Positions 76-63,930 of a DNA stretch of 64,000 nt are shown here, one piece after another. The notes under the pieces were generated by a model. The model was not told the origin of the DNA. It worked only from the letters and a program-made list of their open reading frames with translations, and ran no database searches. Each line of letters opens with the position of its first letter. Position 1 is the stretch's first letter. Made by a program: the position numbers and the translations under genes. The DNA comes from a virus: IMG/VR virus record IMGVR_UViG_3300045988_098422; one strand, 5' to 3'.

Positions 76-723
76 ATGGCAAAAGCAGCATGGTTAACCG
101 TCGCCCCGATGTCAGGGACAGGTAACGCAACAATCACCAACACGGGTACAGTTCACACAGGTCGTGAACAACGTACAACAACCGTGACAGGAACTGCAAC
201 AGGGGTTTCTCCTAATAAAACTTATACGGTTGTGCAGAAAGCGAAGCCGGAATTTGTAAGTTTTGACAACGGTGCAGAAATCACAGTTCCAAAAACAGGC
301 GGGACACTTACTATTACAGGTAAGTCTAACTCCTCTAAATTGACCTTTGCACTTCTTAAACTCACTGACGATGGTGATACCGCTAATGTGGTTGAGGGTG
401 GTTTGAAATTGACATTGCCTGCGAAGTACGATGCAGGTGGTGCGCAGACTTCAAATGATACAGCAATTTCTGGTGACCCCGGAGCTACGGCTGAATTTAC
501 ATTCAGTATTAAGTTTACAGGCATTGCAGCCAATACAACTATCAATGAGTTGACCGCTGCATTGAAAGTGACAGCTCAAGGGGGGCAAACAGCTCAAATT
601 TTTATCAGACAGTCTGCAGGAGACCCACAATTCTCATTCGGTCAGGCTACCATTACTCTGGAAGCAAGTGGCGCAGCCGTTACGAATACAGTTGTTTCTA
701 ACACTTCTTGGACATTATCATAA
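76..723 (+). CDS. BACON/Ig-like virion surface (decoration or fibre) protein, paralog A
   Basis: N-terminus MAKAAWLTVAPMSGTGNATITN...RTTTVTG matches the second half of the BACON consensus (W-L-x-V-x-P-x-S-G-x-G-N...R-T-x-x-V). C-terminus ends NTSWTLS, the first half of BACON. About 135 aa are colinear with the N-terminus of ORF 1740..2810. Confidence 0.6.
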   Translation: MAKAAWLTVAPMSGTGNATITNTGTVHTGREQRTTTVTGTATGVSPNKTYTVVQKAKPEFVSFDNGAEITVPKTGGTLTITGKSNSSKLTFALLKLTDDGDTANVVEGGLKLTLPAKYDAGGAQTSNDTAISGDPGATAEFTFSIKFTGIAANTTINELTAALKVTAQGGQTAQIFIRQSAGDPQFSFGQATITLEASGAAVTNTVVSNTSWTLS

Positions 724-977
724 TGGCAACCAAAAGAGTAAAGAAAGCAAGTGCAACACAACCGCCCGTCAGGGCGGTTGCTGTTGTTTCTTCAGGCGTT
801 AACGACGGCTTTGACAGAACGATGACTGTTACCGGAAGAACGACTGAGGGGACACCTATACAAGTGTCCTCTTTTCGCATTACTCAATTAGGTTTAAGAG
901 AGCCGTTTTTACCTGCCGACAGCGATGAACCGTTTGAAACAGCCGATGGTGAACAATTTGGAGTTTTAAAATTATAA
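723..977 (+). CDS. hypothetical protein (84 aa)
   Basis: ATG at 723 overlaps the upstream TAA (TAATG). The ORF-track start at 708 is a TTG. No recognisable motif. Confidence 0.45.
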   Translation: MATKRVKKASATQPPVRAVAVVSSGVNDGFDRTMTVTGRTTEGTPIQVSSFRITQLGLREPFLPADSDEPFETADGEQFGVLKL

Positions 978-989
978 AGTTAAAAGGTT

Positions 990-1187
990 ATGGCATACAA
1001 GTCTAAATTTACAGGGGTAGAAGTTGATAACTTGCTCACCTATGTGCAGACGTTGCAACAGAATCCGGATGCCGTGTTGCAAAACATGACGGGTCAGGCA
1101 ATTATTGACAAGATAAATACCGTTACAGGAAACATAGTATTCACTAAATTTGTGGACGCACAGGCGGGCGCAGGTAAATCAGTATAA
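990..1187 (+). CDS. hypothetical small structural-module protein
   Basis: Compact ATG ORF in the + strand gene train. No recognisable motif. Confidence 0.45.
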   Translation: MAYKSKFTGVEVDNLLTYVQTLQQNPDAVLQNMTGQAIIDKINTVTGNIVFTKFVDAQAGAGKSV

Positions 1188-1190
1188 AGT

Positions 1191-1727
1191 ATGAACTATT
1201 CTTTTGCAACATCACAAGAGGCGGCTGATACGGTGAACATTACACCGGAAGAAATTGGTGTGCCTGCAAATAATTATGTGCGGAAGAAGGAGTTGATTGC
1301 GACTGGAAAGTTTGATGAGAGTGCTTTAGCGTCTTACACAGATAATGAATTTGTGTTATTAAAAGATTTGGCGCAAGGTTCATTCACTATCACTCTTGCT
1401 TTAAATTCTGACATCACAAGCCGAGGCACGGTGCAGATTAATGATGGAGCAGCCGGAGCAACCGCTCAAGCGACCGTAGATTTGGGCGACCAAGTGCTTG
1501 CAAAATGCAACCTGACAAGCCCAGATGATGCCTTTGACGGATGGTATGAGGGCGATACAAAAGTTAGTAGTGATAAGAATTACAGCTTCACAGCTACTAA
1601 GAATGTTTCTTTGGTGGCAAAAGCAATGTATATTGATGTCACCCCTACATCACTGGAATACACTGCCGCAGGCGGTGAGCAAACATTGACTGTAACAACC
1701 AACGTAAATAGTTGGACAGTAAGTTAA
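1191..1727 (+). CDS. Listeria-Bacteroides-repeat protein ending in the first half of a BACON domain
   Basis: Contains FDGWYEG (List-Bact / Flg_new type repeat). C-terminus is VTPTSLEYTAAGGEQTLTVTTNVNSWTVS. The C-terminal ~115 aa are paralogous to the C-terminus of ORF 1740..2810. Confidence 0.6.
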   Translation: MNYSFATSQEAADTVNITPEEIGVPANNYVRKKELIATGKFDESALASYTDNEFVLLKDLAQGSFTITLALNSDITSRGTVQINDGAAGATAQATVDLGDQVLAKCNLTSPDDAFDGWYEGDTKVSSDKNYSFTATKNVSLVAKAMYIDVTPTSLEYTAAGGEQTLTVTTNVNSWTVS

Positions 1728-1739
1728 ATTTAAAATAAT

Positions 1740-2810
1740 ATGGCGAAAGATAGTTGGTTAACCGTATCCCCGATGTCTGGCAAAGGCAATGCCACAATCA
1801 GTAATTCCGCTCCTGATTTTAAGGGGCGGATTCAGAGGTCTACTGTCGTGACAGGTGCAGCGACTGGGATATCTGGGAATAAGACTTATACTGTTATACA
1901 AAAAGGTATGGGGGAAACCATTGTGATTCCCACCCGTTCGTATTCGGTAAATAATGGGGAAACTACTTTAACGATATCGGGTTCAAGTAATTCACCTAAA
2001 TTAACGTTTGCAACAGTCGGTACAAGCCAGATTCCATTAGATTTGCCTACTACCTACACAGCCGATGGGAAAACCCAAGCAAACGGAGCAGCTATTGCAG
2101 GAGACCCCGGAGCTTCTTATTTATATTCTTTTTCTGCAACTATAAGGGTTCCATCCAATAATGTGGGGCAACGAGTTTCCACAGTAAGAGTTTCCGGACA
2201 AGACCCAAATGTTTGGATTGATATTGTTATCACTCAAGCGACAGCAACATTTACTGTTGCGTATAGAGCCGGAAATTATATATCAGCCGTTCAGCCTACT
2301 ACTCAAACCGTGAATTATGGTGGGACAGCCGCTTCTGTTGCTACGGTACAGGCAGAAGATACTAATTACCGATACGAATTTGATGGTTGGTATGAGGGGT
2401 CTAATAAGGTCTCTAGCAGTCCTTCGTTAAGTGTGGCTAATATTACCTCGGCACGCACATTTGAAGCCCGTGCGAACCGTATAAGCAAGGCGGTAACTAT
2501 TACCGTTGCGTTGGATGCAAGTAGCGCAGGTAGAGGAAGCGTTTCAGGCGGTGGCTCATACAATATTGGAGCAAGTTGTACAGTACAATGTGTAATGAAC
2601 AATGCTAGTGACGTGTTTGATGGTTGGTATGAGGGAAATATGAAAGTAAGTTCTAGTCAGAATTACACATTTACCGTTTCAGCCGCTAGGTCGTTAAGGG
2701 CGAAAATTCTATATCTTGATGTGACACCTACTTCTTTGGACTTTGAAGCCGGAGGCGGAAGTGAAACATTAACAGTAAGTACCAACGTTGACAGTTGGAC
2801 AGTGAGTTGA
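1740..2810 (+). CDS. BACON/Ig-like plus Listeria-Bacteroides-repeat surface protein, paralog B (mosaic)
   Basis: N-terminus MAKDSWLTVSPMSGKGNATISN is paralogous to ORF 76. Two FDGWYEG repeats. C-terminus LDFEAGGGSETLTVSTNVDSWTVS is paralogous to ORF 1191. Confidence 0.7.
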   Translation: MAKDSWLTVSPMSGKGNATISNSAPDFKGRIQRSTVVTGAATGISGNKTYTVIQKGMGETIVIPTRSYSVNNGETTLTISGSSNSPKLTFATVGTSQIPLDLPTTYTADGKTQANGAAIAGDPGASYLYSFSATIRVPSNNVGQRVSTVRVSGQDPNVWIDIVITQATATFTVAYRAGNYISAVQPTTQTVNYGGTAASVATVQAEDTNYRYEFDGWYEGSNKVSSSPSLSVANITSARTFEARANRISKAVTITVALDASSAGRGSVSGGGSYNIGASCTVQCVMNNASDVFDGWYEGNMKVSSSQNYTFTVSAARSLRAKILYLDVTPTSLDFEAGGGSETLTVSTNVDSWTVS

Positions 2811-2825
2811 CGAATGATTATTATG

Positions 2826-2854
2826 GGGAATAAAATTTGAGTATTTTTATTCCC
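2826..2854 (+). terminator. stem-loop (10-bp stem GGGAATAAAA / TTTTATTCCC) after the surface-protein genes
   Basis: Perfect 10-bp inverted repeat with a 9-nt loop in the 80-nt gap before the sheath gene. Confidence 0.45.
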
Positions 2855-2890: not shown

Positions 2891-4558
2891 ATGGCAACGA
2901 GTGTTTATTTTAATGGAAAATTAAGAACTCTTCCTGGAGCTTATTCTACGATAACTTCTGGGGATAGCACTGCATCACGTTCGCTGGATTACGGTACAGT
3001 CCTTATCATTGATACGGGTGTTTATGGTGCTGGATTTGGTGGTGGTGCAGGCGTAAATGGTGAAGGAGCGCAAGGTCTTGACGCGATTTACGAGTTTGAC
3101 GATTTAACCACTTTCCGCAACTTTGTGAAAGGTGGTATGTATTGGAAATGTGCGGAAGCTCTTTGGAAACCAGACCCGTCCAATGCTGATGCAGTGGGTA
3201 TCAGCAAATTGTTGTTTGTGCGTGCTTGTACGACAAAGGCTGCAAAGATGACATTTACAGCGACAGGCGGTGGTTCTAATGGCGGAACGTTTGTAATCCG
3301 GACTATTGATGAGGGGCTGAACGCAAACGGTGTTACAGAGGAAATTGACGGTGTAACTTACTTGAAAAATGGATATGCGTTTACTACCGAAGCGGGCGTA
3401 GATAATCCGGAAGCGGTGGTTCTGAAGTTGTGGCAGGGCACATTTACAGGTTTATACAAAGACCCCGTCACAGGCGTTGAGCTTTCCTATAATGAGTTGA
3501 CCGTTGAGCAATCAGACGCAAACCTGTTATGTGAAAGTCCTGAATGTACCACGATGGCAGAGCTTATTTATTGGGCACAAACCGACGAAAACTTTGGGGC
3601 ACGTTTTGTTCTGGACGATGCGACGGCTGGTAAGGGCACAGGAGAAATGAATGCTTCTGACGTAACCGATGGTTATCAATTAGCCGCAGGCGGTACAGAA
3701 ACTTATACTCCGAATACAGATTTGGAGAGTGTATTAAGTCAGATTGCCGATGTTGATTACAACATTGTAATGACTGACCAAATTGGCGCAAACGCTTTGA
3801 GTGCCGCTAATAAGGCAATAATCGCTCATCGTAATTTGGACGCTAAGTTTGACAAGTTTGTTTTCATTGGTGCATACGACAGCCGTGCCAATTACGAGGC
3901 TTCTTTGGCTTATGCAAAACAAGCAAACAACGCTTATGTCTGCATCGTTCACGGTGGTATTGGTACGGCTAGTGACATGGTGGCTTCCAAGATACGTTGG
4001 TGGGGTGTATTCTACAACTTGTGTCAGGTAGTGGGTCGCACGGCTGGAAAACCGCCTTATGTGCCTATCACTAACAAGACAATCGGTGGTGACAAGTTGC
4101 AAATGATACCTAACGAAAAGGAGATGGAAAAGGCTGTTAAAGCCGGACTTATTATAGTCTCAAACAATCCGTATTTGAAACGTTTTGTAATTTTGCAGGG
4201 TGTAACTACATTGCAAGACAATACGCTCCTCTTCAACAAGAAGGGACAGAGCTTTAGCTTACAATTTATGCGGTGTTTGGCACAACTCAATAAAGAGTGT
4301 GTAGTGAACGCAGAAATTGACTTGCTTGCTGATGAAAATGGGGTCAATATTAATACCCTGTCTAAAGGTGCGTTGGAAACGTGGACAATCAATTTCTTAC
4401 AGACACGAGTTGCAACAGAAAATCAGGATAACTTGATTTCCAAGTTCCAAAACGTAGTCGCATCCAGAGAAAATGATTATTACCGTGTAACTTACGAAGT
4501 AATGATTAATAACGAAGTAACTAAGATATTCTTTACAGGATTCTTGTTACGTAACTAA
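2891..4558 (+). CDS. tail sheath protein
   Basis: 555 aa, immediately upstream of a 162-aa tube-sized ORF, two chaperone-sized ORFs and the tape measure. N-terminus is sheath-like (SVYFNG..LPGAYSTI). The call rests on size and synteny. Confidence 0.6.
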   Translation: MATSVYFNGKLRTLPGAYSTITSGDSTASRSLDYGTVLIIDTGVYGAGFGGGAGVNGEGAQGLDAIYEFDDLTTFRNFVKGGMYWKCAEALWKPDPSNADAVGISKLLFVRACTTKAAKMTFTATGGGSNGGTFVIRTIDEGLNANGVTEEIDGVTYLKNGYAFTTEAGVDNPEAVVLKLWQGTFTGLYKDPVTGVELSYNELTVEQSDANLLCESPECTTMAELIYWAQTDENFGARFVLDDATAGKGTGEMNASDVTDGYQLAAGGTETYTPNTDLESVLSQIADVDYNIVMTDQIGANALSAANKAIIAHRNLDAKFDKFVFIGAYDSRANYEASLAYAKQANNAYVCIVHGGIGTASDMVASKIRWWGVFYNLCQVVGRTAGKPPYVPITNKTIGGDKLQMIPNEKEMEKAVKAGLIIVSNNPYLKRFVILQGVTTLQDNTLLFNKKGQSFSLQFMRCLAQLNKECVVNAEIDLLADENGVNINTLSKGALETWTINFLQTRVATENQDNLISKFQNVVASRENDYYRVTYEVMINNEVTKIFFTGFLLRN

Positions 4559-12060: not shown

Positions 12061-12968
12061 AAGCGATACAGAAATTTAAACAGTTAACGGGATATAATAT
12101 ACAGGCTTTCTTTGAAGACTTTGTATTGTTTTGTAATTCGTATTATCCGTTAATTGTAGGTTATTACACGGGCGCAACAAATGTATCGGTTGATGATAGT
12201 TTTGGGCGTTTAGAAACCCTTATGAAGCAAGCGCAGGAAATAGAACCTTTGTTTACTTTAAAGGCAAACAGTTTGACAGGGATTGGAGCTTGGGAGCTTT
12301 TAGATACGTTTACTGATTGTCAAACAAAACTTTGGACTATTAATAATTCTTCACGTTGGTTACGTTCGGCAATTATTGGCAAGTTTTCTAATAATATTGC
12401 TTTGAACAGAGTATTAAAAAGCCGTGAGAATTTTGAAATTGTAGCTACTGAATTGGGCAGTAATGACCCTCAAAATGCGTGGTTTGATATTGCTAAAAAC
12501 AATTTTGTTGAGGAAGAGGACTACGATGCTAATAATGAGGGCGGTATGTTCAAAATTAATATAAAACAGTCTGGCAATTACGATATTCCAAATATTGTTG
12601 ATAATTTAAGTTCCGAAAAGATTTTGGGGCGGGATATGGATGTTGACTTTAGGTTTGAGAATAATGATATTGCTACTGTTGATTATGAATTGGCAGTTCG
12701 GCAGGCGTTTAACACGATATTGCATTGTGTCAAGGGAGCGATACCTGAATTTAATGATTATGGAATACCAAACGATATTCCGGGGTCAAGCGTTAATGCA
12801 GTTCAATATCCGGTTTTGTTTAAACATATCATGAATATGTTCCAGCGTGATGCTCGTTGGGTACAGGTCAATCTTATTGATGTGTATCGTAAAGAAGATA
12901 ACATTTTTATGAAAATAAATGCGAAAACGGTTACAAATAACTTTTTAGAAACAAATATTCAGATATGA
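12054..12968 (+). CDS. baseplate wedge protein with gp25/GPW-like C-terminal region
   Basis: ILHCVKGAIPEFNDYGIPNDIPG resembles the gp25-family G-x-x-P-x-x-P-x-(F/Y)G motif. Lies directly upstream of the baseplate J-like gene. Confidence 0.4.
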   Translation: MVEAIQKFKQLTGYNIQAFFEDFVLFCNSYYPLIVGYYTGATNVSVDDSFGRLETLMKQAQEIEPLFTLKANSLTGIGAWELLDTFTDCQTKLWTINNSSRWLRSAIIGKFSNNIALNRVLKSRENFEIVATELGSNDPQNAWFDIAKNNFVEEEDYDANNEGGMFKINIKQSGNYDIPNIVDNLSSEKILGRDMDVDFRFENNDIATVDYELAVRQAFNTILHCVKGAIPEFNDYGIPNDIPGSSVNAVQYPVLFKHIMNMFQRDARWVQVNLIDVYRKEDNIFMKINAKTVTNNFLETNIQI

Positions 12969-14167
12969 TAACAAAGGTAAACAATACAATTTCCTTCCTT
13001 AAGAATTTATGGGTGGAAACATTTTTGAATAAAACGGATAAAGTAACCGATATTACAGATAATTCCGTTTTGAATGGAGTTGCTTATGGTACGGCAAAGG
13101 TAGCACAAAAGGCGTTGAAAGATATTGCTATCGTAGAAGCGCAAATTTTTCCGGAAGAAGCGACAGGGGATTATTTGGACAGGGCGGCTCAATTGTTTGG
13201 TGTTACACCCCGTAAAGGTGCACTCGGTTCATCTACTTATATTCGGGTCTATGCAGCTCCTGGAACAGTTTATACCGCAGGTGTGAATACATTTGTGAGC
13301 AATGATGGTGTTCGGTTTGCCATAGAAGAGAGCCTGACTGTTGGTGAAACGGGTTATGGATATGTAAAAGTGCGTAGTGAGAGTACAGGTTCTTTTACCA
13401 ATGTTTCGGCAAACTCTATTGTAACTTTGTCACCTATTCCACAAGGGCATTACGAATGTACGAATGAATATTATGCTTTAGGCGGGCGCGACCAAGAGAG
13501 CGACGAAATGTTTCGCAGGCGCATTTTAAATCATCAAAATGTGTACGCCACCGCCACGATGGAGAAATTTACACAAATATTCCAAAATATTGACAGCCGT
13601 GTCTTAAAAATTATGTATATCGGTATAATGGAAGACGGCTTTATGCACATTCAAATTGCTACACAGAACGGGCAGGATTTGACCGAAGCTGAATTGAATA
13701 CATTGCTTGAGGGTGCAGCCCCTTATTTTGGTATTGGGGACTTCATTGTTAATGGAAACCTTATGGGAATTAAGTTGGAGAATGCAACTTGGTACGAAGT
13801 AGGTGGAGAAGACGGTATTGATTTCCGTTGTGAAATTGAGGCAGAATATGCTAATGACATATCTACCGTGCGCAAGAATATTCAGGTAGGTCTGACTAAG
13901 TATTTGGATTTTCGTTATTGGGAAGCTGGAAACAAGGTTGAATGGGATAACTTGCTGGATATTGTAAAACAAGCCGAAGGAGTGCGCTACGTGGCTTCTG
14001 AATGGTTTAAACCAAATGTGGATGAACCTGTTGCTGATTATATGTTGCCACGTGTGAAGAAATTTATCATGCGTGATTTGGAAGGCAACGTGATGACAGA
14101 CGAATTAGGCGAGACACAGTTGTATGACAATTTAGCTCCTGTATTTTACCCCGCTGGACAAAGCTAG
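12965..14167 (+). CDS. baseplate J-like (gp6/gpJ family) protein
   Basis: 400 aa. The N-terminal region (..AIVEAQIFPEEATGDYLDRAAQLFGVTPRKGALGSSTYIRV) follows the Baseplate_J pattern. Start overlaps the upstream stop (ATGA). Confidence 0.6.
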   Translation: MITKVNNTISFLKNLWVETFLNKTDKVTDITDNSVLNGVAYGTAKVAQKALKDIAIVEAQIFPEEATGDYLDRAAQLFGVTPRKGALGSSTYIRVYAAPGTVYTAGVNTFVSNDGVRFAIEESLTVGETGYGYVKVRSESTGSFTNVSANSIVTLSPIPQGHYECTNEYYALGGRDQESDEMFRRRILNHQNVYATATMEKFTQIFQNIDSRVLKIMYIGIMEDGFMHIQIATQNGQDLTEAELNTLLEGAAPYFGIGDFIVNGNLMGIKLENATWYEVGGEDGIDFRCEIEAEYANDISTVRKNIQVGLTKYLDFRYWEAGNKVEWDNLLDIVKQAEGVRYVASEWFKPNVDEPVADYMLPRVKKFIMRDLEGNVMTDELGETQLYDNLAPVFYPAGQS

Positions 14168-15803: not shown

Positions 15804-18143
15804 ATGGCTAAGTTAATATATAAAGAATTTGCAGGTGTTGGCAAGGGATTTGAAGTAGCCACTTCAATCCCGCCCGCTGGATTGGTATCGGTTTTACGAG
15901 CCGCCCGTCAAGGTGAGCGCAATAAGTTTCGTTATTCTTTGGATGACGGACAAACTTTTACTGATTGGCTGGAGCTTGATGATACTAATGGAGAGTTATT
16001 AGGCAAGCTAACTGATAGGGTGGATTTGGTGATGCACGTAGTAACTGAACCGTTTTATGTCAAGAAGAGATTGGCAAGAATGGCGAATACTGTTGCTAGT
16101 CCATTTGATTTGCCTGCAAGTTCCATTTTTTACGATAGGTCTATTTTTAAGACATTTTTTGAAAGCAACGATACACGTGTCCTCGGTTGGGCGTTAAACG
16201 TATTAGAGAAATTATTTGAGCCAAATGTAATTCCTCTATATATAAGACGAAACAACCAAGACGACTACAACGCATTTTTCCTGACTATAACGCATTTCTT
16301 TGCGTTTATTGTTATTTATGGTAGGCAATTTCGTGAAATAGAAAATAGCGATATATTGCTGAAAAAGTTTGTAGAGGGGTGGGGCATTGTGTACGAAAAC
16401 ATAGACACCCCCGAGCAGCGGGCGTTCTTATTCCAGAATTGGATTAACCAATTTTATGAAAGGGGCACTCGGGATATAGCTGCCAAAGAGGAGTTGAACC
16501 CAGACGGGAGCATAAAAAGGCTAAATGGAGAACTTAGACGTTTGGTAGGATACCAGAAACCGAATGAGTTTATTTTTGCCGTGCTCACCCCGCAAGACAT
16601 TGGATGGTGTTTGGGTTACTCCTCTCCTACGTGGTATGGAACAGAAACTGTGAATGCAGTGTCAAAAGGGTACGATTTGGGCATGGTGTACAGTGAGCCG
16701 GAGAAAGGTGTTGGGGAACTAGCCAACTACCCTACAATCGGCACATTAGAGCGTAAACAGTTGGACGATATAAATGTATTCCAGCTAACAGGTTCTGGAA
16801 GGGTTGGTTTAAGTACTGAAGCTGACCCGACAAAGGCATTAGAGGTTTATCCAGGATTAGATTATGAGATTTCCATTTGGGTAAAGGCTCTTAATGCAGG
16901 CGCACAAAATTTGGAGTTTGGCGTACATTGTTACGACGGGAATATGCAGTTGATAAATCAGGCTCGTATTACTGATTTACAAGAAACTAATAGTTTTTAT
17001 ACAGGTGATAGATATCAATCCCCTTGTAAGGTGGTGGGGCAGTATTATCGCTTAACAGGCATTATCTATAATATATTAGCTCAACGGTCAGAAGGCTTCT
17101 ATTTGAACTTTGAAAACGGGAGACCATTACGTTTCATGGGAGATGTGAAATATATGGCTCCCTATTTAGTGCAGAACAGGGATGGGAATACCGCTGATGT
17201 GGTAATTGCAGGGGTAACGCTGAAGCCGTTGTATTTGCACGTGGATTACGAGTTAATAGAAAATCGCCAAGAAACTCAAGAGCTTCCATATCCAGCAATG
17301 GAATATTCCTTTACAAAGGACGGAAAGTTTACCGTATTACGGTCATCACCTACCTCACAGGGCTATCTTGGACAGCCGAATGCGATTGCAATGTATGCGC
17401 AAATTAAGTCAGCCCGTACAAAACAGGATATTGAAGAATTTACAAATAGATATCTAGTAAGTTATAAGAATGTTGTTTCTTATACATGGTTGGATTGGGT
17501 GGTTCGCACGTCTTGGTTCTTGACTTTTTATGTAAAGAAAGAATTAGATGGTTCACCGATTGCAGGTGCAACAGTTACCCTTGATAATGGGTTTACGTCC
17601 ACTACTGATGCTGACGGTTATGTGCGGTTTGAGTTACAGGATGGCAGTGTAGTGAATTGGACAGTTACCGCACGAGGCGCAACTGCAACGGGTACAGCTA
17701 CAATGAATAAAGACCAAGTAGTTAATGTGTCGTTGAATGTGCCACTTGAAGTAGATGTGACAATAGTTGAGGCAGGTTGGGGAACTGTAAATGTGGAAGG
17801 AAGTAAATTGCCGAATACTAAGATAACATTGACAGCAACACCGACAGCGGGTTATGTCTTTATTAAATATGTGATAAATCCGGGAGCTACGGAATTAACA
17901 ACTCCTATTGCTGATTATTGGTTGACAACGTTTGATATTAACGTTCAGGCGATATTTGAGCGTAGCGGAGAATTATCGTTTGCTCCGGCAGAGGTAACAA
18001 TTCCGGCAGAGGGTGGCACGGCTACCGTGACGGCAACTTCTACTAAGCATTGGCAGTTTGACGCATTGCCTGAAGATTGGGCAACTGTTACGCCAAACGA
18101 AGGAAACGAAGGAGATACAACAATTACAATAAAAATAGAATAA
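15804..18143 (+). CDS. tail fibre / receptor-binding protein with CarboxypepD_reg-like and BACON-like C-terminal modules
   Basis: 779 aa. DGSPIAGATVTLDNGFTSTTDADGYVRFEL is a carboxypeptidase-regulatory-like fold motif. C-terminus is LSFAPAEVTIPAEGGTATVTATSTKHWQF..EDWATVTPNEGNEGDTTITIKIE (BACON-like). Confidence 0.5.
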   Translation: MAKLIYKEFAGVGKGFEVATSIPPAGLVSVLRAARQGERNKFRYSLDDGQTFTDWLELDDTNGELLGKLTDRVDLVMHVVTEPFYVKKRLARMANTVASPFDLPASSIFYDRSIFKTFFESNDTRVLGWALNVLEKLFEPNVIPLYIRRNNQDDYNAFFLTITHFFAFIVIYGRQFREIENSDILLKKFVEGWGIVYENIDTPEQRAFLFQNWINQFYERGTRDIAAKEELNPDGSIKRLNGELRRLVGYQKPNEFIFAVLTPQDIGWCLGYSSPTWYGTETVNAVSKGYDLGMVYSEPEKGVGELANYPTIGTLERKQLDDINVFQLTGSGRVGLSTEADPTKALEVYPGLDYEISIWVKALNAGAQNLEFGVHCYDGNMQLINQARITDLQETNSFYTGDRYQSPCKVVGQYYRLTGIIYNILAQRSEGFYLNFENGRPLRFMGDVKYMAPYLVQNRDGNTADVVIAGVTLKPLYLHVDYELIENRQETQELPYPAMEYSFTKDGKFTVLRSSPTSQGYLGQPNAIAMYAQIKSARTKQDIEEFTNRYLVSYKNVVSYTWLDWVVRTSWFLTFYVKKELDGSPIAGATVTLDNGFTSTTDADGYVRFELQDGSVVNWTVTARGATATGTATMNKDQVVNVSLNVPLEVDVTIVEAGWGTVNVEGSKLPNTKITLTATPTAGYVFIKYVINPGATELTTPIADYWLTTFDINVQAIFERSGELSFAPAEVTIPAEGGTATVTATSTKHWQFDALPEDWATVTPNEGNEGDTTITIKIE

Positions 18144-18145
18144 TT

Positions 18146-18976
18146 ATGAGTACAATAAACATCCACAGGGGTACATTCCTAGAAAAGGAAGAATTAAGAA
18201 GAATGATAGGGTTTTTAAACGATAACCCTATCAACTCTGCGATGATTGCAGCTTCTATATCTTTTGGGCTTGTAACTCCCGGAGCTGTTCCAGCAAATCC
18301 CTTTGCTGTTACAGTTTCCAATACATTGGGAACAATTAACATGACGGGCGGTTATGTTATTGATAGCACGTTAAAGGCATACAAAGTTACCAATCAAACA
18401 GATTTAGCCGTGCCGTCAGACGGCTTGTGGTATTGGTTAAAAGTTGGGGCACAGTCTGTAAATTACGAAGAGGGTTATGTACAGGTAGACGCTTCTGGAA
18501 ACGTGTCAGGTACGGTCAATTTTGATGGTATTGTGCGGGGGCAGAGTTCCGGTGTGCCTACATGTATAAAGTTTGTAAAAGATGATGGCACGACCCCTCT
18601 AAACAATCAAGTGTATCAGGTTGTGAATATTGTGAATAGTAATAATATCGTTCTGTCCAGTGGTTATCCATTCCAGCCGGAAACTCAACTTCGGGTAGTG
18701 GTGCTCGGAAGCATCCCTATGGGAAATCGTTTTACAGATGAGCAACTTCAGGGGCTTTATACATTTTCTTCTTTTAAACTTACATTTGTGGTGGAAAGGA
18801 CTACTAATACCGCTCCAGGAAAGAGTAGTAACGAGTATTGGCTTGCACGTGTACGCAATCAAAATGGGATTGTGACAGTGGAAGATAAGAGAACCCAATT
18901 TTGGCAGCTAGCCGCAGGCGGTGGGGATGTTCCTGGTTCAGAATACGATACATTTATGGTTAAAAATACGCAATAA
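18146..18976 (+). CDS. fibre-module protein
   Basis: ATG at 18146 (MSTINIHRG). The ORF-track start at 18077 lies inside the upstream gene. Confidence 0.35.
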   Translation: MSTINIHRGTFLEKEELRRMIGFLNDNPINSAMIAASISFGLVTPGAVPANPFAVTVSNTLGTINMTGGYVIDSTLKAYKVTNQTDLAVPSDGLWYWLKVGAQSVNYEEGYVQVDASGNVSGTVNFDGIVRGQSSGVPTCIKFVKDDGTTPLNNQVYQVVNIVNSNNIVLSSGYPFQPETQLRVVVLGSIPMGNRFTDEQLQGLYTFSSFKLTFVVERTTNTAPGKSSNEYWLARVRNQNGIVTVEDKRTQFWQLAAGGGDVPGSEYDTFMVKNTQ

Positions 18977-55568: not shown

Positions 55569-57179
55569 ATGAACGTACAGATTTTATTTAATGATGACGC
55601 CCGAAAGAAAATGTTTGAGGGGGTTGAAGAGTTGGCAAATGCAGTGTCGTCCACGCTCGGACCAAAAGGGCACTCGGTTATCCTGGATAAAGGCTATGGA
55701 ATACCCCACATCACCAAAGACGGTGTGACAGTTGCCCGTGCCTACGATACGGATGATACGATGAAGCGTATGGGTGCGACGCTTGTGAAGACCGTTGCTG
55801 CAAAAACATGTGATGAGGCGGGGGATGGCACTACGACAGCCACCATTTTAACCCGTGCATTAATGAAAGAGGGGATGGCAACATTAGCCCGTGTGTCTAA
55901 TCCACAGCGTTTTAAAGAGGGTATTGAAGCCGCTAAATGCGAAGCCGTGAAGTTTATGCAACAGATGAGCAAAGAAATTGGTGAAAACGATTTTGAGCGT
56001 ATCAGACAGATTGCGACAATAAGTGCCAACGGTGATGAGGAAATTGGGGCTATTATCACTGAAGCTATTGGCAAAGTAGGCAACGACGGAGTAATTACTG
56101 TTGAAGAAAGTAGCAAGAGCGAAACCACCGTAGAGGTGACGACAGGCTTCCAATGGGAAAAGGGGCTGTTGAACCCGTATTTTGTGACTGACCCCGAACG
56201 AATAGAATGTGTACTGAACAAACCATACATTTTGCTCTTTGGGCAAAACATAAACTACCCCGATGAAATATTGGGTGTATGTCGCAAGGTGTACGATAGT
56301 CACCGTTCTCTTTTGGTTGTTGCTCCTAATGCGTCTAACGACGTAGTGAATTTCTTGGTGCAGAATGTTAAACAAGCCAATGGACTGAAAGCCTGTTTCG
56401 TTAAAGCTCCGGGATATGGGCAGATGCAAAAGGATTTGATTATGGATTTGGGCGTTAAGATTGGCGCACACGTAATCGGAGAAGAGTATGGCAATCGTGT
56501 AGAAGAAATTGGCGTGGATTGGCTTGGTGAGTGTGAGCGTGTTGTGGTAAATAGCACTCGTACTATACTCACAGGGGGCGCAGGTTCGCCAGATGAGGTA
56601 AATACACAGGTAGCCGCAATTAAGCACCAATTAGACGACAGTACGAACGCTTTTGACATTGAAAAGTACCGTGAACGTATTGCACGCCTGACAGGTGGTG
56701 CGGCTGTTATTTATGTAGGCGCAGACAGTGACGTAGAAATGAAGGAACGGAAAGACCGTGTTGATGATGCTATTGCCGCAACTCGTGCAGCATTGGAAGA
56801 GGGGTACGTTCCGGGAGGCGGCACAATTCAGCTTCGTGCCTCTGAACTGCTTGTGCACCAACTTGCAGACTTGAATGAAAAACCAGCCGATTTCAGAGCT
56901 GGATGGTGTGTAGTGGCTGAGGCTTTGCGTTACCCGTTCCGTCAATTATGCGAAAATGCTAGTGCGAACGCAGTACGTATTCAAGTGGATATGGAACTTC
57001 AACCGTGGATGCACGGTTATGACCCTATAAAGGAAGAAGTTTGTGATATGTATGATGCAGGAATTATTGACCCGACAAAGGTGGCACGCTTGACGCTTGA
57101 GAACGCTACGTCGGTTGCAATTCAATTCCTCAATACTTCATGTGCAATGGCAGCTAGTAATGATGAGAAAGGGAGTTAA
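55569..57179 (+). CDS. groEL: GroEL/Cpn60-family chaperonin
   Basis: GPKGHSVILDK..PHITKDGVTVA, AGDGTTTATILT, AALEEGYVPGGG. 536 aa with no GGM tail. Confidence 0.85.
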   Translation: MNVQILFNDDARKKMFEGVEELANAVSSTLGPKGHSVILDKGYGIPHITKDGVTVARAYDTDDTMKRMGATLVKTVAAKTCDEAGDGTTTATILTRALMKEGMATLARVSNPQRFKEGIEAAKCEAVKFMQQMSKEIGENDFERIRQIATISANGDEEIGAIITEAIGKVGNDGVITVEESSKSETTVEVTTGFQWEKGLLNPYFVTDPERIECVLNKPYILLFGQNINYPDEILGVCRKVYDSHRSLLVVAPNASNDVVNFLVQNVKQANGLKACFVKAPGYGQMQKDLIMDLGVKIGAHVIGEEYGNRVEEIGVDWLGECERVVVNSTRTILTGGAGSPDEVNTQVAAIKHQLDDSTNAFDIEKYRERIARLTGGAAVIYVGADSDVEMKERKDRVDDAIAATRAALEEGYVPGGGTIQLRASELLVHQLADLNEKPADFRAGWCVVAEALRYPFRQLCENASANAVRIQVDMELQPWMHGYDPIKEEVCDMYDAGIIDPTKVARLTLENATSVAIQFLNTSCAMAASNDEKGS

Positions 57180-59328: not shown

Positions 59329-59946
59329 ATGAAGAAAGATTTCCTTAATGTTTCTCCTGATACAGGGGGGGGTAGCGGAACGGTAACTGTCACCGCTGAC
59401 CCTAATTTAAACTTTGCTAGTCGTACGACAACTTTGAATTTTAATGCTGATGGAGAAGTATTAAAAGAGGTTGAAGCGTTACAGTTTGGGAATACCATTA
59501 TTCCGCAATTTTATTTAAGTCCAACCGTTTCAAGTAACAATGACTTATGGGCGTTGAAAATTACAACAACCTTAGAACTAGAAGAATTTGCGGCTGGAGC
59601 TTATAATTTCTTGGTGGATTGTACCGCTAATAAGAAGATAGCTACGGAAGGGACAGCTCCTAATGTAACTATTTGTATTTCGGTGATTAATAGTGTTATC
59701 ATACCGAGTGGTGGAAGTAACATAAATAACCGAGAATACGATATGTATTACAGTAAAGACAACGGTACTAAGACTAAGATGACAGTAAGTAAAGACCAAT
59801 ACAGTCAGTTTATTTCTTTCCGTTTTATGGAGAGGGCTACATTTGAAGAACTAACTGTTTCTAATTATCGCTTTTGGCTTCGCAATATAAACGATGCAAG
59901 TGAAATAGAACTTCCAGTTAGGTTTAGATTAGCTTATCATTATTAA
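59329..59946 (+). CDS. protein beginning with a BACON second-half motif
   Basis: MKKDFLNVSPDTGGGSGTVTVTADPNLNFASRTTTLNF follows the W/L-x-V-S-P-x-x-G-x-G..R-T-x-x-L pattern seen at the N-termini of ORFs 76 and 1740. Confidence 0.5.
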   Translation: MKKDFLNVSPDTGGGSGTVTVTADPNLNFASRTTTLNFNADGEVLKEVEALQFGNTIIPQFYLSPTVSSNNDLWALKITTTLELEEFAAGAYNFLVDCTANKKIATEGTAPNVTICISVINSVIIPSGGSNINNREYDMYYSKDNGTKTKMTVSKDQYSQFISFRFMERATFEELTVSNYRFWLRNINDASEIELPVRFRLAYHY

Positions 59947-59978: not shown

Positions 59979-60458
59979 TTACCGCATTTCGTTATAACTA
60001 CGGTTCATCCACGCTTCTTTTTCCATGCTTTCAATCATGTCCTCAAGGAAATTTAAGGTTCCTTGGTCAGCGGGTGGCACTTGGTCATGAATTTCACGGA
60101 TGCGTCTAATTACCGTGTCCCAGTCGGCAGAAATAATTTTCCACATTTCCATGTCCGTCGGGAGTGGCTGAGACATTTCAAACTCCTGAATGTGGTTTGC
60201 CTGTAACATAGCTTCCATACTACCGAGCGGTCTGCCACCTAAAGCCCGCACACGTTCAGCAACGTCATCAACACGTTCAATTTCGGCTTCATAAAGTTTC
60301 AGCATAGCTTCGTGATAGCTGCCAAAAGAAGAACCAATAACGTTCCAATGGAACTGCCATGTTTTTAGCAACAGGGTAAAGTGGTCGGCTAATAAGCCGT
60401 TCAACAGGACAAGACTTTTAGCTATGTCCTCTGATGTTAATCCAATGTTTACTTTCAT
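59979..60458 (-). CDS. dps: Dps (DNA-binding ferritin-like protein)
   Basis: LNGLLADHFTLLLKTWQFHWNVIGSSFGSYHEAMLKLYEAEIERVDDVAERVRALGG matches the Dps ferroxidase-site helices (H..W.V.G..F...H......E....D..AER). Start taken at MKVNIGL (60458); an ATG at 60467 is also possible. The track start at 60506 lies in the promoter. Confidence 0.85.
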   Translation of the reverse strand: MKVNIGLTSEDIAKSLVLLNGLLADHFTLLLKTWQFHWNVIGSSFGSYHEAMLKLYEAEIERVDDVAERVRALGGRPLGSMEAMLQANHIQEFEMSQPLPTDMEMWKIISADWDTVIRRIREIHDQVPPADQGTLNFLEDMIESMEKEAWMNRSYNEMR

Positions 60459-60493
60459 AATGTACATTTTAAAAAGTTGATGTATATACGCCA

Positions 60494-60501
60494 CAAAGGT
60501 A
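60494..60501 (-). promoter_or_regulatory. -7 box TACCTTTG for dps (minus strand)
   Basis: Reverse complement of CAAAGGTA, within GACTACCTTTGTGG. This is the same core as the + strand repeat promoters. Confidence 0.5.
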
Positions 60502-60548
60502 GTCAAAAGAAAATTATTAGAAAAATCTTAGAAAAAGTCCGGTGAAGT

Positions 60549-62683: not shown

Positions 62684-63292
62684 ATGTCAACAGAAAATTT
62701 AGTACCCGCAGCAATACTCTTAAAGATTAAGAAGTTGCAAGAACTAGCCTTGAGAGGCGTAGGTGGTGAGGCGCAAAATGCTCAAAGAGTTTTAGAAGCC
62801 TTGTGTGAAAAATATGGTTTAACCCTTGAGGATTTAGACCAAGATGCAAAAGTAACTTATGAATTTCCACTACGAGCTTCTATTCGTTCGCTGTTTGTTA
62901 ATTGTTTTACGTACATGTTTGGGGCGAATACCCGCTTTAAAGAAGACTACACGGCTTATCGTGGCTGTGATACAAAGAAAGAATGGGTGGAATTAAATCT
63001 GACACCTAGCGAATATATAGAATTTTCACAGTTCTGGGAATGGCATAAACATAATTTTCTTAAAGAACGTGCTGCCATGCGTGAAGCGTTTAAGAGTGCC
63101 TATTGTGAAAAGCACCAATTATTTACAAACGATTTTGCCGACGATATACGTGAGGAGCTAGATAGCCGTAAAGAACCGACCTTAGAGGAAATAATGGCGA
63201 TTAAAGCACTGGCGGGGACGCTTAAAAATAATACCTATCATAAACAGATTGGGAGCAGTGCAAACGCTTATAACGAGGAGGACGAAGAATGA
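62684..63292 (+). CDS. DUF2786-like protein
   Basis: N-terminus ILLKIKKLQELALRGVGGEAQNAQRVLEALCEKYGL follows the DUF2786 pattern (KLLALA...EAE.A...A..L..KYGI). ATG at 62684. Confidence 0.4.
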   Translation: MSTENLVPAAILLKIKKLQELALRGVGGEAQNAQRVLEALCEKYGLTLEDLDQDAKVTYEFPLRASIRSLFVNCFTYMFGANTRFKEDYTAYRGCDTKKEWVELNLTPSEYIEFSQFWEWHKHNFLKERAAMREAFKSAYCEKHQLFTNDFADDIREELDSRKEPTLEEIMAIKALAGTLKNNTYHKQIGSSANAYNEEDEE

Positions 63293-63930
63293 TGACTACA
63301 AAAGAGCGTGACTTCCATTTAGTACAAAAGGCTTTAGGTGGAGATAACAAGGCTTGTGAAACAATATACAACAGGTTTAACAGGGCGGTAAATTATCAGA
63401 TAGGCAAGATAGTGATGGACACCGAAATAGCCTTAGACCTTACAATGGAAACATTTGAAAAGATATTTACCCGTTTGCACCGCTATCAGCCGGATTACTG
63501 TTTAAGCACATGGGTGAGCCGCATAGCTACTAACACCGCATTAGATTACACCCGAAAAGTAAGGCGTGTTACAATTGTAAGTATAGAAGCAAGTATAGAA
63601 AACGAGGATGGGGCAGATATACAGGTGATGGACGACGAACCAACTCCCGATGAGCGTATAATCTTAACACAAAAGATGACCTACCTTACAGGGCTGATGC
63701 GGTACATGCAGCCGAATGAATGTAGGCTGTTGCAACTGTATTACGTGAACGACATGGGTTATACCGAAATAGCTGACGAAATGGATATTTCGGTGCGTGT
63801 TGTCAGGCAGTATATCAGGGATGCACGCAATAAACTACGCAAGTTGACGCAGGAAATAAGCATGCGGGAAGTATTAACCAAAGAACAAAGAAGATATGAA
63901 AAAGAATTACAGAGCCAAGTTACAGGGTGA
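63289..63930 (+). CDS. ECF-type sigma-70 family RNA polymerase sigma factor
   Basis: Region 2 (..DLTMETFEKIF..Y......WVSRIATNTALDYTRK) and region 4 HTH (MGYTEIADEMDISVRVVRQYIRDARNKLRK). Confidence 0.75.
   Translation: MMTTKERDFHLVQKALGGDNKACETIYNRFNRAVNYQIGKIVMDTEIALDLTMETFEKIFTRLHRYQPDYCLSTWVSRIATNTALDYTRKVRRVTIVSIEASIENEDGADIQVMDDEPTPDERIILTQKMTYLTGLMRYMQPNECRLLQLYYVNDMGYTEIADEMDISVRVVRQYIRDARNKLRKLTQEISMREVLTKEQRRYEKELQSQVTG

Follow-up and report, generated by a model that had tools for sequence, protein, structure and literature searches.

Why should several neighbouring phage genes stop in the middle of a protein domain, and why should genes beside them begin with the other part of it? 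This question is raised by a 64,000-nucleotide stretch of DNA (the window) from the IMG/VR virus record IMGVR_UViG_3300045988_098422, which derives from an uncultivated human gut phage of ~105-109 kilobases (kb) carrying a contractile-tail gene set. The domain is BACON, an immunoglobulin-like (Ig-like) sandwich of two packed antiparallel sheets (PMC11216935). Five tightly packed genes lie on the plus strand within positions 76-2810, namely the open reading frames (ORFs) ORF76, ORF723, ORF990, ORF1191 and ORF1740, and an initial annotation had proposed that ORF76, ORF1191 and ORF1740 end in the first half of a BACON domain and that ORF76, ORF1740 and ORF59329 begin with the second half. We refer to the C-terminal piece as B1 (~33 amino acids (aa), roughly the first three strands, ending in '...SWT[VL]S-stop') and to the N-terminal piece as B2 (~55 aa, the remaining strands, starting with 'MAK..WLTV.P.SG.GN'). 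The termini quoted in that annotation are correct, with B1 running up to the last residue in the first three proteins and B2 standing at the N-terminus in the second set of three, although the B2 of ORF59329 is weaker and has no linked B1 gene. The two pieces are complementary, the break point between them is exact and conserved, and they are encoded on separate, adjacent ORFs. On sequence grounds we lean towards the reading that separate polypeptides dock by fold complementation between B1 and B2, which would rebuild a whole BACON domain between chains. The genes and segments concerned are the following.

76-723, plus strand: ORF76, 215 aa, with the order B2, Ig-like domain, B1; the same 215-aa gene is predicted by a public gene caller.
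76-240, plus strand: B2 of ORF76, residues 1-55, from the initiator Met; BACON_2 positions 40-92 of 94, PF13004 positions 8-61 of 61.
241-621, plus strand: central Ig-like beta-sandwich of ORF76, residues ~56-182; all-beta in the AlphaFold model, with a predicted local distance difference test score (pLDDT) of ~90.
622-720, plus strand: B1 of ORF76, residues 183-215, up to the stop codon; divergent, aligns with the other B1 segments.
1191-1727, plus strand: ORF1191, 178 aa, a candidate anchor with a unique N-terminal part, one Flg_new-like repeat and a C-terminal B1, and no B2.
1617-1724, plus strand: B1 of ORF1191, residues 143-178; fused to a B2 it matches BACON_2 positions 2-92 at 42.7-47.0 bits.
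1740-2810, plus strand: ORF1740, 356 aa, with the order B2, Ig-like domain, two Flg_new-like repeats, B1.
1740-1910, plus strand: B2 of ORF1740, residues 1-57; BACON_2 positions 41-92 of 94.
2700-2807, plus strand: B1 of ORF1740, residues 321-356; BACON_2 positions 2-37 at 17.9 bits alone.
59329-59946, plus strand: ORF59329, 205 aa, with an N-terminal B2-like segment (residues 4-43); it lacks a B1, and no B1 gene adjoins it.

The position of the break was defined with two Pfam profiles, BACON_2 (PF19190, 'viral BACON', 94 positions) and PF13004 (61 positions), for which the gathering score is 25 bits. From residue 1 onwards, the N-termini of ORF76 and ORF1740 match only BACON_2 positions 40-92 of 94 and PF13004 positions 8-61, and the last 36 aa of ORF1740 match BACON_2 positions 2-37, so that none of these chains holds a contiguous BACON domain of ~90 residues. 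Whole-protein scores of these two against PF13004 and PF19190 are all under 25 (23.6 and 20.6 bits for ORF76, 16.4 and 17.9 bits for ORF1740), and the isolated B2 of ORF76 scores 28.4 and 25.3 bits. Against BACON_2, B2 alone reaches 19.4-25.3 bits and B1 alone ~18 bits, while artificial joins of the two give one unbroken match over positions 2-92 at 42.7-48.5 bits: 42.7 for B1 of ORF1191 with B2 of ORF1740, 43.8 for B1 of ORF1740 with its own B2 (self-fusion), 47.0 for B1 of ORF1191 with B2 of ORF76, and 48.5 for B1 of ORF1740 with B2 of ORF76. When the B1 of ORF1740 is joined to the B2 of ORF59329, the match covers positions 2-82 at 38.2 bits; this B2 also matches PF13004 at 32 bits, over the gathering score (positions 10-50 of 61), and a family-specific B2 hidden Markov model (HMM) with E = 0.002. 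The specific pairing of ORF1740 with ORF76, which had been put forward in the initial annotation, receives no support over self-pairing or pairing with an anchor.

The solved BACON domains 3zmr_A and 9s8x_A align straight through the artificial junction. In the native domains the junction region reads WTVSCDQPWVTVSP (9s8x) and WHISTSESWCKSS (3zmr), and in the phage proteins it is represented by 'WTVS-stop' and 'MAKDSWLTVSP'; the break thus falls in the short turn that links the W-T-V-S strand to the W-L-T-V-S-P strand. Because the BACON sandwich spans both pieces, a single B1 or B2 is an incomplete fold. An alternative idea, which places the true boundary of the domain between its two Trp motifs, is disfavoured, since the solved domains and the 94-position profile cover both halves. 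ORF76 and ORF1740 have ~100 N-terminal residues in common, as ORF1191 and ORF1740 have ~65 C-terminal residues, and DNA repeats of 71-75% identity lie behind both likenesses. The six terminal cases are paralogues of one inherited split and not independent events; the recurrence of the break therefore stands as a shared position, not as a set of separate occurrences.

The ends of these proteins are conserved far beyond the window. ORF76 has 2612 homologues in the database, and the best 120 of these 2612 are 204-215 aa long, 73-97% identical and almost invariant at their ends (MAKAAWLT... and ...SNTSWTLS). Relatives of ORF1740, collected by an exhaustive profile search, are 38-45% identical and span 355-2296 aa; all of them start with 'M(A)KDSWLTV.P.SG.GN' at residue 1, and most end with '...Y[IL]DV.PTSL.F.A.GG...F.V.SN..W[TS][IV]S' at the stop. 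Family-specific HMMs detect a strong B2 at residue 1 in 10 of 10 and a strong B1 at the C-terminus in 9 of 9 hits, and none of these relatives has a B1 directly followed by a B2. Related IMG/VR contigs, more than 30 of them, encode an ORF1740 protein of 355, 356, 1042, 1051, 1294, 1304 or 1390 aa, with only the middle varying, and the ORF1191 gene in the same contigs encodes 177-178 aa and is always terminated by B1. Since the ends are fixed and the middle is variable across relatives, the termini are under strong constraint, and the repeat array between them is free to expand and contract. Queried against IMG/VR, the N-terminus of P0121 gave 0 matches. A tblastn search of the GenBank phages with the chimeric junction, a short query of low complexity, returned no unsplit close relative.

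Among otherwise syntenic phages the length of ORF1740 is polymorphic through gain and loss of Flg_new-like repeats between fixed termini, up to a maximum of 2296 aa in the protein library. The Flg_new-like repeats of ORF1191 and ORF1740 score 19.4, 23.4 and 16.5 bits, where the cut-offs (PF09479 and PF18998) are 27 and 23.6, and this repeat region matches hundreds of long Flg_new-array proteins.

Is the design restricted to this phage? By tblastn against GenBank phages the split was found in at least three further lineages, one of them crAss-like. In cr127_1 (crAss-like, Crevaviridae) gp35 is a 70-aa protein that ends with YLRASPTNILLSEENDYKANVDIESNTNWTFND and a stop (...SNTNWTFND-stop), and gp36, which begins 10 nucleotides (nt) later in another frame, has 211 aa in the order B2, Ig-like domain, B1 and ends with '...SNTDWTFE-stop'; there are 1424 homologues of gp36, the best 120 of the 1424 being 210-211 aa long. 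In MT121964 and MT835482 a protein ending with '...TNTTF[KE]V..-stop' is followed by a B2-Ig-B1 protein of 208-210 aa and then by a B2-type protein of 97-102 aa, and the 97-aa protein of MT835482 passes Pfam BACON at 27.2 bits (positions 8-61). csAssE-Sib has a lone 218-aa B2-Ig-B1 gene and no neighbouring partner gene. At least four lineages have a B1-only gene immediately 5' of a B2-first gene. Proteins with B1 only are ORF1191, gp35 and P0183; those with B2 only are ORF59329 and the 97-aa protein of MT835482, and P0148 and P0175 appear to belong here too but may be truncated. In public records, gp36 of NC_055886 (L011 5001-5636) is labelled 'lipocalin-like protein' and WOZ57225 of OR575929 (L012 4989-5645) 'glycosyl hydrolase family 5 protein (xyloglucanase)'; both labels probably stem from partial BACON similarity and are probably wrong.

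If the B1 of an anchor, that is, of a B1-only protein, and the B1 of a B2...B1 subunit must fit the same B2, the two are expected to track each other, and they do. Across eight genomes the mean identity between anchor B1 and subunit B1 is 0.726 within a genome versus 0.636 over all pairings, and in a permutation test only 4 of 40,320 pairings reach the observed within-genome identity, some of the eight genomes being near-duplicates so that the effective sample is smaller than eight. One-residue loop indel states are common to anchor B1 and subunit B1 in all eight genomes. The terminal motifs also switch jointly across lineages (WTVS/WTVS, WTLE/WTLS, NWTF/DWTF, TTFKV/TTFTV). Where B1 residues are identical, only 35-70% have identical codons and synonymous sites have diverged; therefore, the similarity does not result from recent gene conversion. 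The presence of an anchor-like B1 on a B2...B1 protein implies that this protein could bind its own copy or close on itself.

These observations suggest a mechanism in which the B1 of one protein would pack on the B2 of another to give a complete domain and a tight non-covalent joint, through which Ig-repeat proteins would be held on the virion and strung into chains. The B1-only proteins, ORF1191 and probably a 296-aa protein encoded upstream of ORF76, would act as anchors that hold the chain on the particle, and the B2...B1 proteins would dock on them, ORF1740 units on ORF1191 and ORF76 units on the 296-aa protein. As the B1 of a docked protein resembles that of the anchor, it could in turn recruit another copy or a B2-only protein, for which ORF59329 is a candidate. 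The predicted product is a modular fibre or adhesin of variable length, placed by synteny at the head-tail region. A role as adhesin or spacer would be in line with other phage Ig-like and BACON proteins (PMC6949934, PMC8008677, PMC13370021). We favour joining between different chains because one-sided proteins exist, because B1 and B2 genes are adjacent, and because anchor B1 tracks subunit B1. A broader proposal, which we advance only tentatively, is that crAss-like phages and unassigned myovirus-like gut phages of ~105 kb build adhesin fibres by non-covalent head-to-tail polymerisation through the split BACON joint, in which the anchor would present the first third of the domain and each subunit would supply the N-terminal two thirds together with a new first third.

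For ORF76 the candidate partner is encoded directly 5' of it (L001 3742-4632, equivalent to L043 9046-9936). This 296-aa protein carries two tandem C-terminal B1-like motifs, '...YFVFGSPYVWLDEDSVGTQKIYSNTDWVLTVE' and 'PFAFGSSHCWLNEITNKGTQEINARQDIHWTLE' followed by the stop, with no B2 between them, and has no Pfam or PHROG family. When its C-terminus is joined to the B2 of ORF76, BACON_2 matches positions 17-92 at 32.7 bits, compared with 20.6 bits for whole ORF76. The protein may be the virion anchor for ORF76, with weaker support than the pair of ORF1191 and ORF1740 has.

Several results weigh against docking between chains. The AlphaFold monomer of ORF76 leaves B2 (residues 1-55, pLDDT <50) and B1 (residues 183-215) under ~55 pLDDT and unpaired; it was built from a shallow alignment (48 sequences with identities of 73% or more), which also makes the model weak evidence against closure within one chain. 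The C-terminus of ORF1191 joined to the N-terminus of ORF1740, run through AlphaFold as a single-sequence chimera, had a mean pLDDT of 45 and was poor throughout. Searches with the ORF76 model in Foldseek gave generic Ig-like matches only, at template-modelling (TM) scores of ~0.3, and the top hits to FimA are not meaningful. The docking of half-domains in trans that the initial annotation envisaged is partly supported, by the complementarity and conservation of the pieces, the adjacency of their genes, the one-sided proteins and the concerted B1; the halves are of low confidence in both AlphaFold runs. The B1 of ORF76 is itself a weak and divergent BACON match; fused to B2, it stretches the BACON_2 match to positions 17-92 and gains only ~4 bits. 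The B1 of ORF1740 has no adjacent B2-only gene, and its candidate partners are only ORF1740, ORF76 and ORF59329. Chains that carry both halves could close in cis, which may coexist with docking on an anchor, and the within-genome similarity of B1 may stem from past gene conversion and not from a common partner. Incorporation into the virion, finally, is deduced from synteny alone. ORF723 is not claimed as a B2-type cap: hhalign against the B2 profile aligned 25 columns with P = 0.011, and there is no Pfam match.

The most serious competitor to docking between chains is a circular permutation closed in cis, in which the B2 and B1 of the same ORF76 or ORF1740 chain fold together and no chain of subunits forms. 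The order expected of a permuted domain, its end first and its start last in one polypeptide, is found in ORF76, ORF1740, gp36 of cr127_1, the lone 218-aa homologue of csAssE-Sib and P0121-P0134; self-fusion scores match those of cross-fusions, as the 43.8 bits of ORF1740 illustrate; and out-of-register cutting of a tandem (BACON-Ig)n array is a classic route to a permuted domain. Closure in cis would, however, leave the B1-only proteins (ORF1191, gp35, P0183) and the B2-only proteins partnerless and the tracking of subunit B1 by anchor B1 unexplained. The two ends of a repeat array of 1300-2296 aa also seem unlikely to close on each other, and AlphaFold leaves the termini of ORF76 unpaired, in a run that is weakly informative. 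We regard closure in cis as an unlikely but still live account of the two-ended proteins.

A somewhat less probable possibility is that there is no complementation at all, B2 being a small autonomous module and B1 an unrelated C-terminal beta motif that adds to some other virion protein, with the half-domain likeness left over from evolution. PF13004 does cover essentially B2 only (positions 8-61 of 61), the B1 of ORF76 and the B1-like motifs of the 296-aa protein are weak BACON matches, the latter protein seems to have two such motifs in tandem with no B2 between, and ORF15804, another gene of the window, ends in a BACON domain truncated at a different point. On the other hand, the 94-position profile and the solved structures hold both parts in one Ig-like sandwich (PMC11216935), and coincidence would have to account for the precise fit of the pieces, the adjacency of their genes and the co-variation alike. 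A self-contained N-terminal piece is not what AlphaFold predicts for the ORF76 monomer either: B2 stays at pLDDT <50, and the adjacent domain is folded at ~90.

Recoding, in which the stop between a B1 ORF and a B2 ORF would be bypassed by readthrough, frameshifting or hopping to yield a fusion with an intact BACON domain, is suggested by the fact that ORF1191 and ORF1740 lie in the same frame only 12 nt apart.

1725-1742, plus strand: ORF1191/ORF1740 junction, TAA-att-TAA-aat-aat-ATG; common frame, with two in-frame stops between the genes.

Both of these in-frame TAA codons would have to be passed, and the 64-kb window contains no transfer RNA (tRNA) gene, suppressor or other. In relatives the spacer between ORF1191 and ORF1740 varies from 12 to 25 nt and all three frame relations occur, gp35 and gp36 of cr127_1 are in different frames, a 64-nt AT-rich spacer precedes ORF76, ORF76 and ORF723 overlap in different frames (TAATG), and every B2 has a conserved Met-Ala/Lys start. 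Reassignment of a stop codon was likewise rejected, given the lack of tRNAs, the use of TAA, TAA and TGA as stops and the long intact ORFs throughout. With stops, spacers and frames so varied and no tRNA present, readthrough, frameshifting and reassignment are unlikely, and we give recoding as a whole a very small chance. Gene decay or an assembly artefact that broke a longer gene, for which only the appearance of truncated domains speaks, is practically negligible, given that thousands of independent assemblies, as well as divergent lineages, show identical ORF boundaries and that the termini are strongly conserved; the initial annotation was right that the break is not random decay, as it falls at the same profile position, exactly at ORF ends, in every relative examined.

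The principle on which docking between chains would rest, an incomplete Ig-like fold completed by a neighbour, is known. In chaperone-usher pili each subunit has such a fold completed by a segment from the end of its neighbour, which results in very stable head-to-tail non-covalent polymers, and a dedicated periplasmic chaperone and outer-membrane usher are needed. The likeness is one of principle only, and there is no sequence relationship: those pili donate a single strand from an N-terminal extension (6 strands to 1), whereas here ~3 C-terminal strands would meet ~4 N-terminal strands, the split divides the profile into ~37 and ~53 positions, the donor is C-terminal, and assembly would be cytoplasmic, on the virion. 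No chaperone or usher was noticed among the ORFs scanned, the window not having been systematically screened for them. Type V pili of Bacteroidia (FimA/Mfa1) use a protease-triggered strand exchange in which the C-terminal strands of one subunit fill the groove of the next, and their precursors are lipoproteins. They resemble the present case in the host phylum and in the donation of C-terminal strands and differ in fold family; moreover, the phage N-termini (MAKAAW/MAKDSW) lack a signal peptide, a hydrophobic leader and a lipobox Cys. The genes described here belong to neither pilus family, and they are BACON members only as two pieces that make one domain. Circular permutation and three-dimensional domain swapping, including its 'runaway' form, offer a further parallel, in that a chain either closes in cis or swaps in trans into open-ended oligomers; the known cases of either kind are mostly single proteins, seen in vitro or in disease. 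The phage proteins likewise have the second half first and the first half last in the chain, and here the arrangement would serve as a conserved means of assembly, with one-sided partners dedicated to it.

Tandem-repeat BACON_2 proteins have been described in crAss-like and other gut phages (de Jonge et al. 2019, PMC6949934). They share with the present proteins the domain family, the occurrence in gut phages of Bacteroidota, the location of the genes beside tail genes, the variable repeat number and a presumed role in adhesion or as spacers. In contrast, their domains are whole and covalently linked, whereas those described here are cut at profile position ~38, with the parts at opposite ends of a protein or on separate proteins; split or partial BACON domains are not mentioned in that paper. 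Ig-like modules on the virions of abundant gut phages are also a point of likeness with T4 Hoc and with 'modular adhesins' bearing BACON and PKD domains. An unassigned myovirus-like group rich in BACON proteins, which bind epithelium when displayed on phage K1F, has been reported (Apjok et al. 2026, PMC13370021); that paper contains no description of a split-domain joint, and the terminal motifs are absent from its supplementary files. Papers on phage BACON repeats, gut-phage adhesins and the crAss001 virion structure describe no split domain either, and literature searches, full text included, found no description of split BACON or Ig-domain complementation in phage fibres. The split BACON version of the known principle is thus one for which we found no prior description.

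If docking through B1 and B2 does occur, it would represent an undescribed mode of phage-appendage assembly, a phage counterpart of donor-strand exchange in pili, and would provide some of the most abundant gut phages with a compact and genetically portable joint. Subunit supply and B2-only terminators, instead of gene length, would then determine how long a fibre is and what it is composed of, and repeat arrays could expand or be swapped without disturbing attachment. The joint would also account for the attachment of fibre components that are flexible and poorly resolved, and would guide the annotation of many 'partial BACON' genes now called lipocalin-like, glycosyl hydrolase family 5 or hypothetical. 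For protein engineering, it would offer a natural non-covalent split-domain tag pair.

The split-domain genes are flanked on one side by head and neck genes and on the other by the tail sheath gene. A public contig of 99% identity extends upstream of the window and carries the portal gene first, then that of the major head protein and several genes for virion or neck-type proteins, followed by those of the 296-aa protein and ORF76. On the 3' side of ORF1740 the tail sheath is encoded at 2891-4558 (phrog_279), after which come a tube-like gene and a long gene, the probable tape measure. When genes were called independently on a 105-kb assembly, the same ORFs of 296, 215, 84, 65, 178, 356 and 555 aa were obtained. 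No close relative of this phage was found among GenBank phages, and the PHROGs contain 0 family matches for the six small genes. No further BACON halves were found in three stretches of 10 kb each, one upstream of ORF76, one beyond the window end and one upstream of the portal gene. Two small genes lie between ORF76 and ORF1191.

723-977, plus strand: ORF723, 84 aa; its ATG overlaps the TAA of ORF76 (TAATG) in a different frame; basic N-terminus.
990-1187, plus strand: ORF990, 65 aa; small and conserved, separating the two cassettes.

The family of ORF723 always follows the ORF76 gene and carries a motif that resembles only the last two strands of B2. Its members (L007-L035) have a Lys/Arg-rich N-terminus (e.g. 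MGKKRLKKSK), a conserved core of the form GFDRTMTVTGRTTEG..SSF.I.QLGLREPF and an equally conserved tail, F..(D/T).GE.FGVLKE, and match no known family. Another truncated domain is found in the baseplate and tail-fibre region, where a 779-aa ORF on the plus strand (ORF15804, 15804-18143) lies 3' of a Baseplate_J gene (12965-14167). Its C-terminus (17970-18143) matches BACON_2 positions 1-63 of 94 at 20.7 bits, corresponding to B1 and the first B2 strands, and is followed by the stop, with the next ATG at 18146. This truncation lacks the last two strands, which is roughly the only BACON-like part of the ORF723 family, and could be a second split site or a coincidence.

With respect to transcription, the sequence TACTTTTG at 32-39 on the plus strand, 37 nt upstream of the ORF76 ATG in the AT-rich spacer, fits TAnnTTTG, the Bacteroides -7 promoter consensus, and suggests that ORF76 may start a transcription unit. 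A GC-rich hairpin, CAACCGCCC-GTCA-GGGCGGTTG, with 9 pairs (7 of them G-C) and a T-rich tail, occurs at 759-780 on the plus strand inside the ORF723 coding sequence, 36 nt after the ORF76 stop; it could be an attenuator or terminator after ORF76, such sites being no commoner than in shuffled sequence. Between the TGA of ORF1740 and the sheath gene there is a perfect inverted repeat of 10 base pairs, GGGAATAAAA ... TTTTATTCCC (2826-2854, plus strand), with a 9-nt loop and no T-run.

Elsewhere in the window, a GroEL-type chaperonin gene (Cpn60_TCP1, Pfam) lies at 55569-57179, and ORF59329 is adjoined by a Dps/ferritin-like gene on the opposite strand (59979-60506, minus strand). A sigma-70-family factor gene lies at 63289-63930, and a ribonucleotide-reductase-like gene and a GIY-YIG gene were recognized by Pfam near this chaperonin, Dps and sigma factor region.

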